This document shows, one piece after another, positions 59,131 through 64,000 of a stretch of DNA of 64,000 nucleotides. Positions within the stretch are counted from its first letter, which is position 1. Each line of letters starts with the position of its first letter. The notes below the pieces were generated by a model. It was not told the origin of the DNA. It worked only from the letters and a program-made list of their open reading frames with translations, and did no database searches. Position numbers and translations under genes: made by a program. The DNA comes from an uncultured bacterium (GTDB taxonomy: Bacteria > Desulfobacterota > Deferrimicrobia > J040): positions 4,622 through 68,621 of the forward strand of contig CAYSCN010000010.1 of the NCBI GenBank assembly GCA_964429585.1, given 5' to 3'.

Positions 59131-59960
59131 TTTTCCCTCTCCGGTTCAGCTGGTTTGCCGACCTCCGGCTTTTTTCTTTCCGGGGGTTTACCTTCGAGAA
59201 TCCGTAGCAGTTCTTCCGCCGGCCTGTAGCCGGTTACGACTCTGCCGTCCGGGAGTATGAGCGTCGGGGTGGAGCGTATCCCGAGTTTTTTCGCAAGTTC
59301 TATGTTTTCGTCTATCACCTTTGTTTCACACGTGGGTTTCGGGATGGTTTTGCCCTCGAAGCTGTCTTCCAGAAGCTTCATCGATTTCTCGCACACGATG
59401 GCTTTTGCCACATCATAGGCGTCTTTGTGTATTTTGAGGGGAAACAGGATTATGAAGAACGCGTAGGAGTCGTTCTCCTTGACTATTTTCTTCAGTTCTC
59501 CGTGGAGCTTTTTGCAGAACGGGCATCTGGGATCGGTGAAGACCAGCACTCTGCGGGGGGCGTTTCTGTTTCCTATTACGAGGGTGTTTTCGAGGGATAT
59601 CTTCACTTCTTTTATCTTGCGGACCTTGATGAGGCGTTCTCTGGTAATGTTCTTCCGGTCTGGTATCCTCAGTATGTTTCCGGAAAAAAGGTATTTTTTG
59701 GAGTAGTCGATGTAAGCCACGTAGGCTATTCCTTTCCTCAACACGTCCACTTCCCACAATCCCGGGACTTCCGAGTTTCGGACCTCTTTTACCTCATCCA
59801 CCAGGTCCTTGAGAATCGTCTTCGCTTCCTCCACGGTCAGGGAGTGGCAGTCGCTGCACTTACCCTCGCCGCAGCCGTTGCTTTGAAATCCTTGGGATGT
59901 GGATGGAATGACGAGAAGCAGGGCGAAAAGCAGGGAGAAAAACGCTAAGAATCTGCTCAT
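59127..59960 (-). CDS. DsbC/DsbG-like periplasmic thiol:disulfide isomerase with an extra N-terminal Cys cluster containing a CxxCH
   Basis: 277 aa; signal peptide; thioredoxin-fold active site CPFC; N-terminal GCGEGKCSDCHS cluster. Confidence 0.7.
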   Translation of the reverse strand: MSRFLAFFSLLFALLLVIPSTSQGFQSNGCGEGKCSDCHSLTVEEAKTILKDLVDEVKEVRNSEVPGLWEVDVLRKGIAYVAYIDYSKKYLFSGNILRIPDRKNITRERLIKVRKIKEVKISLENTLVIGNRNAPRRVLVFTDPRCPFCKKLHGELKKIVKENDSYAFFIILFPLKIHKDAYDVAKAIVCEKSMKLLEDSFEGKTIPKPTCETKVIDENIELAKKLGIRSTPTLILPDGRVVTGYRPAEELLRILEGKPPERKKPEVGKPAEPEREK

Positions 59961-60118
59961 GAGTCTCTACCCCCCGGAGTTTTAGAAATTATAACTCACT
60001 TCCTTTCGACTTGCGACTTACGACTTACGATTTACGCAAGCACGAAATTCTAAATTCGAAGCTCGAAACAAGCCCGAGATTCGAATGCATAAATCACGAA
60101 AACGATGGTCCGTGGTTA

Positions 60119-60280
60119 ACGTAGTTGCGTGGATGGGTGGCTGCGTAACTGGGTGGTCTTTCGCAACTACGATAACCACGCAACCACATAACCACGAACC
60201 ACATTCACTCCACGTTTCGGTCACTAGGATTTAAATATTCGAATTTGTTAGTATTTCGTGCTTCGAATTTCGAATTTGAA
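60119..60280. repeat. copy A of a structured (hairpin-forming) intergenic repeat family
   Basis: Shares ...GGGTGGCTGCGTARYTG.GTG..TTTCGCAAYYACGATAACCACGCAACCAC... and CGTTTCGGTCAYTWGGATTT...TATTCGAATTTGTT with the copies at 61927-62180; contains inverted GTAGTTGCGTGG / CCACGCAAC arms. Confidence 0.6.
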
Positions 60281-60314
60281 ACATCTATTGTCTCGTTTTG
60301 GCTTTACTCTCCTG

Positions 60315-60338
60315 AATATGTATGTTAACATACATATT
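60315..60338. promoter_or_regulatory. perfect 24-bp palindrome AATATGTATGTTAACATACATATT, putative LexA operator (SOS box) in the lexA promoter
   Basis: Exact reverse-complement symmetry about GTT|AAC; 22 bp upstream of the lexA start codon, overlapping the probable -10 region. Typical autoregulatory placement. Confidence 0.7.
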
Positions 60339-60360
60339 ACCTCGTTCGGGGAGGGGAGAT

Positions 60361-60966
60361 ATGGAGAGGCTCACGGAAAAGCAGAGGGAGGTGCTGGAAT
60401 TCATCAGGAATTACGTTCTTGAACGGGGCTTCGCGCCCTCGGCTAAAGAAATAGCCGCCAGATTCGGCATAGCGGAGAAAAACGCCTTCTATTACCTCCA
60501 GGTGCTGGAGAGGAAGGGTTACATAAGGAGGCGTCGCAAAACTCCCAGGGTGGTGGAGTTCACTTCCAAATCCAGGGTTGCTCCGGTGGTGCTTCCCGTG
60601 GTTGGCAGGGTCCAGGCGGGAAAGCCGGTGACCGCGGTGGAGAATCTGGAAGGGGAGATAGTGATGGACAGAACCCTGGTGGGGGGAGAGGAGCTGTTCA
60701 TGTTGAGGGTGAAAGGAAACAGCATGGAGGGGGCTCACATCCTGGACGGAGACCTGGTCCTGGTGAGACCCCAGAAGAAGGTTGAGAGCGGAGAAATAGT
60801 GGTGGCTCTCGTGGGAGAGGAAGCGACCGTGAAGAGGATATATTGCGAGGGGGGGAAGGTGATACTCAGGGCGGAAAATCCCGCCTACGAGGACATCGTG
60901 GTGGATGGAAACGGAGAGCACTTCGAGGTAATTGGGAAGGTGGTGGGTGTGTTTCGGAAGATTTGA
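60361..60966 (+). CDS. lexA: LexA repressor (S24 self-cleaving peptidase)
   Basis: MERLTEKQREVLEFIRNYVLERGFAPSAKEIAARFG winged-HTH; AG cleavage site (RVQAGKP); catalytic Ser (VKGNSMEG) and Lys (VKRI). Start moved to the ATG after GGAGGGGAG; the ORF-track ATG at 60322 lies inside the operator. Confidence 0.9.
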   Translation: MERLTEKQREVLEFIRNYVLERGFAPSAKEIAARFGIAEKNAFYYLQVLERKGYIRRRRKTPRVVEFTSKSRVAPVVLPVVGRVQAGKPVTAVENLEGEIVMDRTLVGGEELFMLRVKGNSMEGAHILDGDLVLVRPQKKVESGEIVVALVGEEATVKRIYCEGGKVILRAENPAYEDIVVDGNGEHFEVIGKVVGVFRKI

Positions 60967-60996
60967 GAGGAATCCTCGCCGGGGAGGGCTTTTAGG

Positions 60997-61605
60997 ATGC
61001 TGATGGAGATTACTTTTGATGAACTGAGAAATTGTCTCACCCGGGAGGGGCTCTATCTCTTCTGCGGGAGGGAATACAGGGGACCCGTGACGTCGGTAGC
61101 CCTCCTTTCGGCTCTCGAAGGGAAAAACGTGGTGGTGGTGGACGCCGGAAACATGTTCGACCCCTACGTGGTGAGCAGGCTCTGCAGGGTGATGAGGGTG
61201 GATCCGGCGAAGGTTCTCTCCAGGTTTTTCATCGCCCGTGGTTTCACGTGTCACCAGGTGGAGAATCTGATCCTCGGTTCGCTTCCGGATTTCGTTCGCC
61301 AGCACAGACCTTCCGTGGTTCTGGTGGTGGGTCTTCTGGAGTCGTTCTACGACTCCGAGGTTCCGTTCAGGGAGGCGGAGATGCTCCTCAAAAGGACGCT
61401 TAAAGTGCTTTCGGGCCTCTCCAGGAAACTCCCGGTGCTGGTGGTGTCTCCGCTTCCGCCGCTTCCCGCGGGAGAAAGGAAGGTTTTCTTTCGCGTGCTA
61501 GCTCTGAGGGCGAGCCGGATTTACGGTCCCTGCGAGGAAGTGGAAAAGGGCTTTTGCCGGAGGCTTTCGCCCCGCCGGTTCGTATTCGAGAAGAAAGAGA
61601 ATTGA
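60997..61605 (+). CDS. inactive RecA-fold paralogue (ImuA/SulA-like), SOS cassette component
   Basis: 202 aa. Collinear with the RecA core, but the P-loop GPESSGKT is replaced by GREYRGPVTS (VVVDAGNMFDPYVVSRL corresponds to AFIDAEHALDPIYARKL; VVLVVGLLESF corresponds to VIVVDSVAAL). No Walker A lysine. Confidence 0.5.
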   Translation: MLMEITFDELRNCLTREGLYLFCGREYRGPVTSVALLSALEGKNVVVVDAGNMFDPYVVSRLCRVMRVDPAKVLSRFFIARGFTCHQVENLILGSLPDFVRQHRPSVVLVVGLLESFYDSEVPFREAEMLLKRTLKVLSGLSRKLPVLVVSPLPPLPAGERKVFFRVLALRASRIYGPCEEVEKGFCRRLSPRRFVFEKKEN

Positions 61606-61617
61606 GGGAGGGTGATA

Positions 61618-61925
61618 TGGGAAGAACGGTGCTTTCGTTCACCCAGGTTATTCATCGTGAAGAGGAGGAGTGGAAGAAGTTCAGGAGAGCCCTCAGGAAG
61701 GAAGACAGGGAAATCCTCGACAGGCTCTTTGGATACGCCAGGGTTCACGCGGCGGAGTCGTCTTACCTGGGCAGGGTGGCTCCCTTCGACGCGATGTTGA
61801 TTTCCATGCTGATAGAACAGGAGAAGAGGATAGACGAGCTGGAGAAGAGGCTGCTCGAGGTGGAAGTACGAAGCACGAAATCCGAGATTCGAAACAAATC
61901 AGTCCCTGACGAAACACGCGGTTAG
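61618..61925 (+). CDS. small hypothetical protein with coiled-coil C-terminus, co-transcribed with lexA and the imuA-like gene
   Basis: 102 aa; GGGTGA-N5-ATG RBS; no recognisable motifs. Confidence 0.35.
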
Positions 61926-61926
61926 T

Positions 61927-62180
61927 AGTTGTGTAGTTGGGTGGCTGCGTAGTTGCGTGATTGGGTGTGGTTTTTCGCAATCACGATAACCACGCAACCA
62001 CGTATCTACGGACCGTTTTTACCGCAAGTCGGTTCGTAGTTGAGTGGTTGAGTAGTTGGGTAGTTGCGTGGATTTTACACAATCACGCAGCTACACAACC
62101 ACGTATCTACGGACCAGGCTTATACTGCGTTTCGGTCATTTGGATTTCGATATTCGAATTTGTTTGGAGGTTGAATCCGC
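61927..62180. repeat. tandem copies B and C of the same hairpin repeat family
   Basis: Two adjacent units sharing AACCACGTATCTACGGACC and the GTAGTTGCGTG...CACGCA hairpin arms; copy C ends with the CGTTTCGGTCATTTGGATTTCGATATTCGAATTTGTT module also seen at 60206-60242. Confidence 0.6.
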
Positions 62181-62289
62181 CATTTAAAAGGGAGGGGGTA
62201 AACCCTTCCCCTACGATTTGTTGTTATTCGTCCAATACGATGTTGTAGGGGCGGGATTTACTCCCGCCCGCTAAACGCGGGGAAGGCTC

Positions 62290-64000
62290 ATGGGGAACCA
62301 GGAAAAGGTCAGAGGCTGGCTGCTCGACGTGAAAGGTACCCCTGGAGGGGTGGTTCTCTGGATTAAGACGGTGAACGGGGAGGTCCGCTCTTTCAGGATG
62401 CGGCTCTCACCCTGGTTCTATCTGGGAGGGAAAGAGACGCGCCTCAGGCGGGTGGGGAGTGCTCTAGAGCGCAGGGGTGCGAGAGTGACTTTCGAAGAGA
62501 TGCGGGAATTTTTCACCGGAGAGGAAGTTCTCGCTCTGAAGGTGCGGGCTTCGTCTCCCGCGGCGTTCCGATTTTTGGTAACCCTGGCGGAGAGGCTCGT
62601 GGGAGGAGAAAGTGTATACTCCAGCGATATACCCGTGGAGGAGTTTTTCTTTTATCTAACTGGTGTTTTCCCCCTGGGAAAGGTGGAGGTCGAGATGGAC
62701 GAGACAGGGGAGGTCCAGTCGATTTATCCGATGGAAGGCCCCTGGGACCTCGATTACGCTCTCCCTCCTCTTTCTTTCATGGAAATCAGGTCCGTCGGGA
62801 GGAGCGGGGTGAATCCTCTCCATCAGCCCTGGGTGTCTCTGGAGGTGCGTTTCGATGGAGACTGCTGGGAAATTCGGAGTGATGGGCCCGCTGAAGTCGT
62901 CACGATTCTGGACTCTATCATTCGGTCACGGGACCCGGACGTGGTGATTTCCGAATGGGGTGACGAATTCGTGTTCCCGCGACTCTTTTCGCTGGCCAGG
63001 AGCGCGGGGATTCCCTTTTCTCCGGGAAGGTGTGACGGGGGAGTGAGGGAGCGAGCCGGGACAGGGAAGTCGTTTTTCTCTTACGGCAGGATGATCTACA
63101 GGGCGGGCAGGATTTCCATTCCAGGCAGGATTCACCTGGACAGGAAGAATTCGTTTTTCTTCCCGGAGGTGGGTTACGAGGGGATGGCGGAGCTGGCTCG
63201 AATCTCGAGGATTCCTCTGGAGAGGGTGTGCAGGGCGGCGCCCGGGACGATAATTTCTGCCATGGAAGTTGAGAGAGCGTGGAAGAATCGCATCCTGATC
63301 CCTTCAAGGAAGCGGCAGGTGGAGGGATTCAAGAGCGCCGTGGAGCTGGTGGTGACGGACAAGGGGGGACTCGTTTATGCCCCTCCTGTGGGAGTTTTCG
63401 AAGGAGTCGCGGAGCTAGACTTCGCCTCCATGTATCCTGCCATAATGGAGAAATTCAATATTTCTCCAGAGACCATCAACTGTGCCTGCTGCGGAGGGAG
63501 GAAAATCCCGGAGACGGGGACCCACACCTGCGAGAAGAGAAGGGGCCTGATTCCCGAGGTTCTGAAACCGATACTTTCCCGGAGGAAGGCGTTCAAGGCG
63601 TTGAGGAGCAGCTCTGCCTCTGACCGGGCTCGGGTTTTCGACGCCAGGCAGAAGGCGCTGAAGTGGGTGCTGGTGGTGAGCTTCGGGTTCCTCGGGTACA
63701 GAAATGCCAGGTTTGGAAAAATAGAGGCTCACGAGGCGGTCACGGCGCTGGGAAGGGAGATGCTGCTCAAGGCCAAAGATGTTGCGGAGATGGAGGGATA
63801 CTCCTTCATACATGGGCTGACGGACGCCATGTGGGTTAAGCGGGACGGCGCGACTGAGAAGGATTACGAGGAGCTGGCTCGGCTCGTATCACGCGCGACG
63901 GGGCTGGAAATTGCCCTTGAGGGAGTGTACCGGTGGGTAGCGTTTTTACCTTCCAGGCGGAACCCGGAAATTCCAGTGCCCGGGAGGTTTCTCGGAGTTT
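62290..64000 (+). CDS. polB: family-B DNA polymerase (PolB/Pol II-like) with degenerate 3'-5' exonuclease motifs; 3' end outside the window
   Basis: Open frame from the ATG at 62290 to the window end (more than 570 codons; absent from the ORF track because there is no stop). Motif A DFASMYPAIM (vs DxxSLYPSII); motif-B-like KWVLVVSFGFLGY; motif-C-like HGLTDAM (vs YGDTDS). Exo I position reads SFMEIRS (vs FDIET) and Exo II reads WGDEFVFPRL (vs NxxxFDxxY), so the exonuclease catalytic acids are lost. Confidence 0.7.
   Translation, partial: MGNQEKVRGWLLDVKGTPGGVVLWIKTVNGEVRSFRMRLSPWFYLGGKETRLRRVGSALERRGARVTFEEMREFFTGEEVLALKVRASSPAAFRFLVTLAERLVGGESVYSSDIPVEEFFFYLTGVFPLGKVEVEMDETGEVQSIYPMEGPWDLDYALPPLSFMEIRSVGRSGVNPLHQPWVSLEVRFDGDCWEIRSDGPAEVVTILDSIIRSRDPDVVISEWGDEFVFPRLFSLARSAGIPFSPGRCDGGVRERAGTGKSFFSYGRMIYRAGRISIPGRIHLDRKNSFFFPEVGYEGMAELARISRIPLERVCRAAPGTIISAMEVERAWKNRILIPSRKRQVEGFKSAVELVVTDKGGLVYAPPVGVFEGVAELDFASMYPAIMEKFNISPETINCACCGGRKIPETGTHTCEKRRGLIPEVLKPILSRRKAFKALRSSSASDRARVFDARQKALKWVLVVSFGFLGYRNARFGKIEAHEAVTALGREMLLKAKDVAEMEGYSFIHGLTDAMWVKRDGATEKDYEELARLVSRATGLEIALEGVYRWVAFLPSRRNPEIPVPGRFLGV

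Follow-up and report, generated by a model that had tools for sequence, protein, structure and literature searches.

Known LexA operators and the bacterial PolB2 operon

LexA is unusual among bacterial regulators in that its binding motif has changed repeatedly, and each new motif opens the SOS regulon of another lineage. The classical boxes are TACTG(TA)5CAGTA in Escherichia coli (CTGT-N8-ACAG) and CGAAC-N4-GTTCG in Bacillus and the Gram-positive bacteria (PMC9578287; PMC8565304), and by 2021 the number of reported LexA motifs had reached 17 (PMC8565304). Here we describe a candidate for a further one, a perfect 24-bp palindrome that precedes lexA in a 64,000-nt stretch of DNA, hereafter the window, from an uncultured bacterium of the Deferrimicrobia (Desulfobacterota; assembly GCA_964429585.1, contig CAYSCN010000010.1, positions 4,622 to 68,621). 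In this window lexA is followed by the genes for an inactive RadA (iRadA), the small protein PPB2 and the archaeal-type family B polymerase PolB2, to which we refer as the cassette. We put the probability that the palindrome is the operator of the LexA encoded 22 nt downstream, and that it governs lexA together with the PolB2 cassette, at roughly 0.88.

The bacterial PolB2 mutasome operon is thought to be archaeal in origin and to have arrived via one transfer event, and lexA and SRAP genes are enriched around it (PMC11791011; PMC4104785). The iRadA family has been described together with PPB2, a helical protein of about 90 aa with a conserved N-terminal arm (PMC11791011). lexA is known to lie beside bacterial PolB2 operons, and in archaea DNA damage induces the PolB2 operons (PMC4104785; PMC11791011). 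LexA is mentioned twice in each of these two papers, solely as a neighbouring gene, and no operator is described in either.

A unique palindrome upstream of a genuine lexA

The elements on which the argument turns are the following:

60315..60338, no strand assigned: candidate LexA operator (SOS box), a perfect 24-bp palindrome with the conserved 22-mer at 60316-60337 and the core GTATG-N4-CATAC at 60320-60333
60350..60358, + strand: Shine-Dalgarno sequence GGAGGGGAG of lexA, as read from the sequence
60361..60966, + strand: lexA (201 aa), with a winged helix containing GIAEKNAFYY, the cleavage site Ala86-Gly87, Ser121 and Lys158

The palindrome AATATGTATGTTAACATACATATT is exact, as stated in the original prediction, its left half AATATGTATGTT being the reverse complement of the right half AACATACATATT, and the 22 bp that were said to separate it from lexA are likewise confirmed: exactly 22 nt (60339-60360), including the Shine-Dalgarno sequence, lie between its 3' end and the ATG at 60361. 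No perfect palindrome in the window is longer, the runners-up having 14 bp, and a length of 24 bp was reached in none of 200 shuffles of the window, the maximum being 22 bp in two of them. The claim that no second copy precedes polB agrees with three kinds of search, each of which returned a single site in the window. The 16-mer TGTATGTTAACATACA with up to three mismatches occurs once against 0.07 expected, the core GTATG-N4-CATAC with up to one mismatch also occurs once, and a weight matrix derived from the orthologous sites gives 37.0 bits for this site, less than 6 bits everywhere else in the window and 17.8 bits for the best site in shuffled sequence. The departure from the E. coli and Gram-positive consensus holds as well, CTG/CAG and GAAC/GTTC being missing at the required spacing. 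The half-sites that had been proposed, TGTATGTT and AACATACA, did not stand as such: what is conserved is instead the core GTATG-N4-CATAC within a 22-bp palindrome, with a variable GTTAAC centre.

This centre is also an HpaI site, and nothing else speaks for a chance palindrome or a restriction-site artefact. Apart from the result of the shuffles, the centre varies among relatives and the arms are fixed, and the conservation over 57 distinct orthologous sites described below refutes this explanation, whose probability we regard as negligible.

The product of lexA matches PF01726 (LexA_DNA_bind; 1e-17) and PF00717 (Peptidase_S24; 7.8e-35), scores 204.2 bits with the NCBIfam lexA equivalog TIGR00498 (cut-off 110.95), and has the LexA structures 3K2Z and 1JHH/3JSO as its best PDB matches. 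[quoted passage not shown] Judged by its domains and residues, the gene encodes a genuine and competent LexA, for which RecA-dependent cleavage is predicted.

Conservation of the box and its covariation with the recognition helix

DNA of lexA loci (numbered here with the prefix L) was taken from reference genomes, from metagenomes and from an exact protein look-up of LexA relatives; the scan of reference genomes gave 80 loci, of which 5 belonged to the clade, and the unrelated lexA loci among them (L006-L080) proved useful as a control set. The protein search yielded one identical LexA, one with 79% identity, a group with 66-72% and a large group with 53-61%, and the few relatives that carry a name are annotated as "Deltaproteobacteria bacterium" or Candidatus Deferrimicrobiaceae.

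Analysis of the clade defined by these relatives reveals the box just upstream of lexA in all 82 loci for which upstream DNA is available, in the form of 57 distinct 26-mers and over a range of LexA identity from 48 to 100%. The consensus is ATAKGTATGYTARCATACMTAT, with the core GTATG-N4-CATAC. No extracted site lacks GTAT/ATAC, although TAT/ATA was a fixed part of the extraction pattern; the inner G/C is found in 84% of the distinct sites and the central TA in the same proportion, and the outer AT-rich positions are conserved too. The GTTAAC centre is not conserved and is replaced by variants such as GCTAAC, GTTAGC, GTCAGC and ACTAAT. At a threshold of at least 14 bits, the matrix finds in the 0.46 Mb of clade loci the sites upstream of lexA plus four extra ones, all of them inside the cassette, and it finds no match in the 0.58 Mb around 73 other lexA genes. 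With one match in 64 kb of the window and none in the unrelated lexA loci, the 22-bp matrix is specific enough for whole-genome scans of the clade. A scan of viral contigs with the pattern ATGTATGNTANCATACAT was also carried out and set aside: it gave 16 matches, 15 in phage contigs of low guanine-plus-cytosine (GC) content (0.29-0.43) and one at GC 0.61, none accompanied by cassette genes, which by a rough estimate is about what chance would produce.

The presence of the box follows the recognition helix of LexA. Every LexA with the helix GIA(E/V)KN(A/G)F(Y/S)Y has the box, barring two loci whose sequence begins within lexA, so that nothing upstream of it is available, and every LexA with another helix lacks it (73 loci). 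For instance, a LexA from Terriglobia (L006, 48% identity) is preceded by CGAACATATGTTCG in place of the box, and that of Candidatus Sulfopaludibacter by a site of the GTAC-N4-GTTC type. Within the clade, Glu39 always occurs with GTATG/CATAC (46 distinct combinations of helix and box) and Val39 always with GTATA/TATAC, both arms being altered (9 combinations). In the HMMER alignment, residue 39 falls where the recognition helix begins and is matched to Ser39 of E. coli LexA. In the crystal structure of the E. coli LexA-DNA complex this serine reportedly contacts the DNA. The pairing of Glu39Val with G-to-A is what one would predict were residue 39 to read that base pair, and it offers a simple route by mutagenesis to the question of how LexA specificity evolves.

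The covariation bears on a first alternative, namely that the palindrome is the operator of another transcription factor encoded elsewhere, with LexA using a different, unrecognised site. AT-rich palindromes are indeed frequent as operators. Against this, the site tracks the LexA recognition helix exactly over about 160 lexA loci and shifts with Glu39Val, and in the regions upstream of lexA no conserved element is visible besides the box and the -35-like hexamer described below. Together with the behaviour of the box in rearranged cassettes, this makes an unrelated factor very improbable.

The PolB2 cassette and its rearranged relatives

Downstream of lexA the window contains:

60997..61605, + strand: iRadA (202 aa), RadA/Rad51 fold with weak matches to RadA, RadB and Rad51; Walker A absent; position conserved in the cassette
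61617..61925, + strand: PPB2 (arCOG07300-like, DUF8156; 102 aa), assigned by Pfam PF26485, the N-terminus MGRTVLSFTQ and comparison with L163
62290..64000, + strand: polB2, archaeal-type family B polymerase, partial, running off the window; PF00136 4.4e-25, NF004416 1e-94

No GxxxxGK[ST] motif occurs in the sequence of iRadA, and the active-site motif of PolB2 is GLTD, not GDTD, the first Asp of DxD being replaced. As read from their sequences, these genes are the bacterial PolB2 mutasome operon in the order iRadA-PPB2-PolB2. Thus, of the two gene names given in the original prediction, lexA is genuine and "polB" can be refined to the archaeal-type PolB2 of this known operon.

Genes of the cassette lie beside lexA in all 49 clade loci with downstream DNA, compared to one of the 73 other lexA loci. 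In most clade loci the cassette is colinear and the sole box is that at lexA, so that transcription of all these genes together from the lexA promoter would be the usual state. The rearranged loci display a more complex pattern. In L091 a gene on the opposite strand splits lexA from iRadA, and a box of 33.8 bits is located immediately before iRadA; in L119 an opposite-strand gene splits PPB2 from polB2, and a box of 34.3 bits is located immediately before polB2. In L096 and L107 an additional box lies in the interval between lexA and iRadA. A divergent arrangement of polB2 and lexA with a single box between them is found in L083-L086 and L157, and two of these loci (L084 and L086) carry a mirror-image TTGATC on the other strand, 17 nt from the hexamer at the box centre. 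In L164/L165 PPB2-polB2 is divergent from lexA-iRadA around one box. Thus, the box follows the cassette genes when they are detached, as has been described for the SOS boxes of split imuABC cassettes (PMC3901139). The fact that it accompanies genes no longer adjoining lexA also argues against the operator of an unrelated factor. With footprinting among the lexA loci, covariation with the helix and sites before detached operon genes all pointing the same way, the earlier suggestion of a lineage-specific LexA box is well backed.

Some further observations concern the neighbourhood. A gene for an SRAP/YedK-like protein is located directly 5' of lexA on the same strand in L091 (3450-4121) and in many loci of the Deferrimicrobiaceae type (where the sequence upstream of lexA ends in …GACGACAAGGGGTGCATAGCCCCCCTTCCGTAG); in L091 it has no box of its own. 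An association of SRAP with PolB2 neighbourhoods has been noted before (PMC11791011). The Candidatus Sulfopaludibacter locus (L041, 3998-5040) encodes a LexA with a different helix beside a truncated iRadA (138 aa) and contains neither PPB2 nor PolB2. Its GTAC-N4-GTTC-type site lies upstream, within the spacer of a TTGACT-17 nt-TATAAA promoter, and the locus resembles the remnant of a decayed PolB2 cassette, with a LexA of other specificity next to it. Finally, ten loci (L007, L010, L016, L019, L023, L027, L028, L038, L044 and L048), mostly from deltaproteobacterial metagenome-assembled genomes, possess an unrelated lexA followed by a dinB homolog within about 0.3-1.6 kb, which is a different pairing of lexA with a translesion polymerase.

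Placement of the box in the putative lexA promoter

The putative promoter elements of the window, neither of which is called by the strict scanner considered below, and those of two relatives are:

60303..60308, + strand: putative -35 element TTTACT of the lexA promoter, 17 nt 5' of TAACAT
60326..60331, + strand: putative -10 element TAACAT at the box centre, one of the TARCAT/CARCAT hexamers found at a fixed distance from the -35-like hexamer
L163 (the 79% relative): -35 TTGACC, 17-nt spacer, -10 TAACAT
L164: -35 TTTACA, 17-nt spacer, -10 TAACAT

When the contexts are aligned on the box, a -35-like hexamer is found exactly 17 nt 5' of the central TARCAT, and this register is shared by different clades. 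It reads TTGACC in 23 of 74 distinct contexts, and most of the others have TTTACN (TTTACA/T), TTGCCG or TTCCAT. The overlap of the palindrome with the -10 region, which the original prediction had proposed, is consistent with the retention of this spacing in divergent relatives, even though the strict scan called no promoter. The box would therefore span the spacer and the -10 element, in the classical arrangement of an operator that represses through occlusion.

In loci of the Deferrimicrobiaceae type (L001, L111, L114 and similar ones) the palindrome is longer, about 32 bp (CCCATATGGGTATGTCAACATACCCATATGGG), and the start codon of lexA falls in its right arm. The ATG lies 4-7 nt after the core, and the -10 element ends 6 nt before the ATG, so near to it that a leaderless lexA mRNA is implied, with an operator that overlaps the start codon. 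For the lexA of the window we considered a start inside the palindrome and rejected it; an open reading frame from 60322 (60322-60966) would add MLTYILPRSGRGD, which is a translation of the operator. Two database proteins (P0004 and P0008) have spurious N-terminal extensions of this kind (MLTYIYWP… and MYANIHIQG…), which correspond to translated box; gene callers sometimes start at the ATG in the box.

The promoter also bears on the possibility that the symmetry is structural, the palindrome being the core of a bidirectional promoter or a DNA or RNA hairpin. The central hexamer TAACAT is present on both strands and is used in divergent arrangements, and the palindrome, taken as single-stranded DNA, has a folding energy of -6.4 kcal/mol (z = -5.2). 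Both arms are kept, however, in the majority of loci, which are colinear and have no divergent gene, and the conservation goes beyond pairing to the sequence itself, GTAT/ATAC recurring in every site. The weak AT-rich stem makes no terminator, and an RNA hairpin would be impossible, because a -10 element inside the palindrome would put the start of the transcript at about its 3' end. We consider a structural origin of the symmetry to be marginally less probable still than the operator of an unrelated factor.

Repeat insertions and the spacing of polB2 in the window

Three further features flank the lexA-iRadA-PPB2 segment:

60038..60277, + strand: repeat copy A, about 240 bp, hairpin-rich, between dsbC and the lexA promoter; bracketing context, outside the operator
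61864..62164, + strand: repeat copy B, hairpin-rich, filling most of the 365-bp gap between PPB2 and polB2
62193..62212, + strand: terminator-like hairpin just 5' of polB2, by consensus match alone

The two copies are direct repeats of an element of 240-300 bp that bracket lexA-iRadA-PPB2, and no further copies are present in the 64 kb. The element has ends resembling inverted repeats (AAGCACGAAAT..AATTCGAA / TTCGAATTTCGAATTT) and long internal hairpins made of 8-nt periodic units (GTAGTTGCGTGG ... CCACGCAACCAC), and it looks like a miniature inverted-repeat element or a repetitive extragenic palindromic (REP)-like insertion. In the closest relative, L163, the spacer between dsbC and lexA is 125 bp and lacks copy A, and a different 8-nt-periodic repeat follows the PPB2 gene. 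The last ~20 codons of PPB2 in the window (…EVEVRSTKSEIRNKSVPDETRG) come from copy B (61864-61925) and replace the C-terminus of the L163 type, …EELEEKRGRSG.

The gap that separates the end of PPB2 (61925) from the start of polB2 (62290) thus consists mainly of hairpin-rich repeat. The RNA of region 61900-62295 is predicted to fold at -169.8 kcal/mol (z = -8.4), and the spacer ends with two GC-rich hairpins, at 62193-62212 and about 62248-62272. This structure could act in termination, stabilisation or processing of the operon transcript.

As to the rest of the window, its other genes were judged by eye from the translations of open reading frames and seem to have housekeeping roles; they would comprise the last part of a ribosomal protein cluster, secY, adk, feoB, multihaem cytochromes, a trp operon and lepA. 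The GC skew is strongly positive, at about +0.2, over genes on the + strand; in the two stretches where the genes are on the - strand, 50-52 kb and 56-60 kb, it falls to about 0. Since the skew follows the strand of the genes, the coding strands are strongly purine-rich, a trait that, together with an abundance of Glu, Lys and Arg in the proteins, hints at a thermophile.

Proposed regulation and scope of the regulon

According to the model that we consider best supported, the locus would follow ordinary SOS logic with a new operator sequence. A LexA dimer would bind the two half-sites GTATG/CATAC, with contacts that probably extend over the 22-bp AT-rich palindrome, and would block RNA polymerase by covering the spacer and the -10 element (TAACAT) of the lexA promoter. 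The lexA-iRadA-PPB2 operon would thereby be repressed, and polB2 with it as far as read-through goes. Upon DNA damage, RecA filaments would trigger self-cleavage of LexA at Ala86-Gly87 via the Ser121/Lys158 dyad, the promoter would open, and the PolB2 translesion "mutasome" would be made along with new LexA. Binding of LexA, repression, RecA-dependent induction and the exact start of transcription are what we infer from the features described above.

Several points weigh against the palindrome being a LexA operator that governs lexA and the cassette. The strict sigma-70 consensus scan of 59900-62400 called no promoter, because the -35 and -10 elements together match just 8 of 12 positions, and in view of this negative scan the promoter was assigned from the register conserved in relatives. 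No box was seen before classical SOS genes, because recA, uvrA and dinB were found neither in the window nor in the clade loci by tblastn with approximate E. coli queries, so the case is weaker at the level of the regulon; dinB homologs detected by the same tblastn lie solely beside unrelated deltaproteobacterial lexA genes. The covariation of Glu39Val with the G-to-A change counts once, because it probably reflects a single evolutionary event. In the window itself, control of polB2 by this box is not assured, because polB2 has no box of its own and a stable hairpin array and a terminator-like hairpin intervene.

A further alternative concerns the scope of the regulon and not the identity of the palindrome. 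This LexA may be a module-specific paralog, like LexA2 of Pseudomonas putida, whose targets are confined to lexA itself and the PolB2 cassette, while the general SOS response is run by a second, housekeeping LexA of another motif; we regard this as a serious possibility, if somewhat short of even odds. It agrees with the presence of the cassette by lexA in 49 of 49 clade loci against one of 73 others, with the location of all four additional boxes inside the cassette, with the lack of a further box in the 64-kb window, and with the SRAP gene of L091, which lies directly 5' of lexA and has no box. There is also a precedent in P. putida, where lexA2-imuA-imuB-imuC forms one unit under LexA2 alongside the LexA1 regulon (PMC3901139). 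The Candidatus Sulfopaludibacter locus speaks for the opposite: a LexA with another helix and a GTAC-N4-GTTC-type site beside an iRadA remnant suggests that the LexA at the cassette is simply the lineage's own type. Furthermore, no second lexA was seen, in DNA that covers no whole genome of the clade, and the sampled DNA always comprises the same neighbourhood, so the absence of other targets says little. On balance, the complete linkage of LexA type and cassette and the confinement of the extra boxes to the cassette make us lean toward a small regulon.

A bolder proposal, which we offer tentatively and hold to be a little less likely than a module-specific paralog, is that LexA, a private GTATG-N4-CATAC operator and the archaeal-derived PolB2 mutasome make up a self-contained mutagenesis module, inducible by damage and inherited, perhaps also transferred, as one unit, with a repressor orthogonal to the general SOS response of the host and with residue 39 (Glu or Val) reading the innermost base pair of the half-sites. 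If true, it would provide a rare natural switch of LexA specificity in which one residue corresponds to one base pair.

Comparison with known systems

With the classical systems the locus shares both protein and operator architecture: the LexA combines a PF01726 winged helix with a PF00717 S24 peptidase, an Ala-Gly site and a Ser/Lys dyad, and the box is palindromic, suited to a LexA dimer, and overlaps the (here inferred) promoter of lexA itself, as in autoregulation. The motif is different. Aligned on their centres, the GTATG/CATAC half-sites match GAAC/GTTC of the Gram-positive box at one of four core positions, and the spacing between the centres of the half-sites (for the tetramers GTAT and ATAC) is 10 bp, compared to 8 bp in the Gram-positive and 12 bp in the E. 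coli box. The recognition helix reads AEKNAFYY, where E. coli LexA has SPNAAEEH. GTATG-N4-CATAC matches none of TTAC-N3-GTAA, GGTT-N10-AACC, GTTC-N7-GTTC, CTAA-N5-TTAG, GGA-N5-TCC or the direct repeat of Balneolaeota. To our knowledge, it is not among the cyanobacterial, Xanthomonas, Fibrobacter, Leptospira, Verrucomicrobia, Myxococcus, Magnetococcus or Petrotoga LexA motifs either. It thus appears to be an unreported LexA motif, as far as an incomplete search of the open-access literature goes, and it belongs to an uncultured group comprising Candidatus Deferrimicrobiaceae and related metagenome-assembled genomes labelled "Deltaproteobacteria". A parallel in kind is the Balneolaeota motif TTACACATATTTTWTACATA (PMC7739468), also a conserved element 5' of lexA orthologs in a poorly studied lineage known mainly from draft genomes; gel shifts validated that motif, a direct repeat shown to cover recA and translesion polymerases, whereas the candidate described here is an inverted repeat.

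In its organization the locus resembles lexA2-imuA-imuB-imuC (dnaE2) of P. putida and other Proteobacteria, where lexA is likewise the first gene of an operon whose other products are an accessory protein with a RecA fold, a second accessory protein and a non-replicative polymerase. Repression there acts through a box at the promoter of lexA; the placement is the same here, and repression is predicted. In split imuABC cassettes each part tends to have its own SOS box (PMC3901139), as do the rearranged or additional-box loci L091, L096, L107 and L119. The components are different, with an inactive RadA, the small helical PPB2 and the B-family PolB2 of archaeal origin in place of ImuA, the Y-family-like ImuB and the C-family ImuC, and so is the operator motif.

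The bacterial PolB2 mutasome operon (Makarova et al. 2014, PMC4104785; Timinskas et al. 2025, PMC11791011) is matched in the order iRadA-PPB2-PolB2, in lexA alongside, in SRAP nearby in many relatives, and in a PolB2 without the first Asp of DxD (GLTD here). A difference lies in the divergent gene orders, with polB2 opposite lexA in L083-L086 and L157 and PPB2-polB2 opposite lexA-iRadA in L164/L165, while in bacteria the operon has been described as colinear only (PMC11791011). What our analysis adds to the knowledge of this operon is the candidate site, its placement in the promoter and its behaviour when the operon is rearranged, and hence the first operator-level argument for direct SOS control of a bacterial PolB2 mutasome, whose link to lexA had previously been one of gene neighbourhood only.

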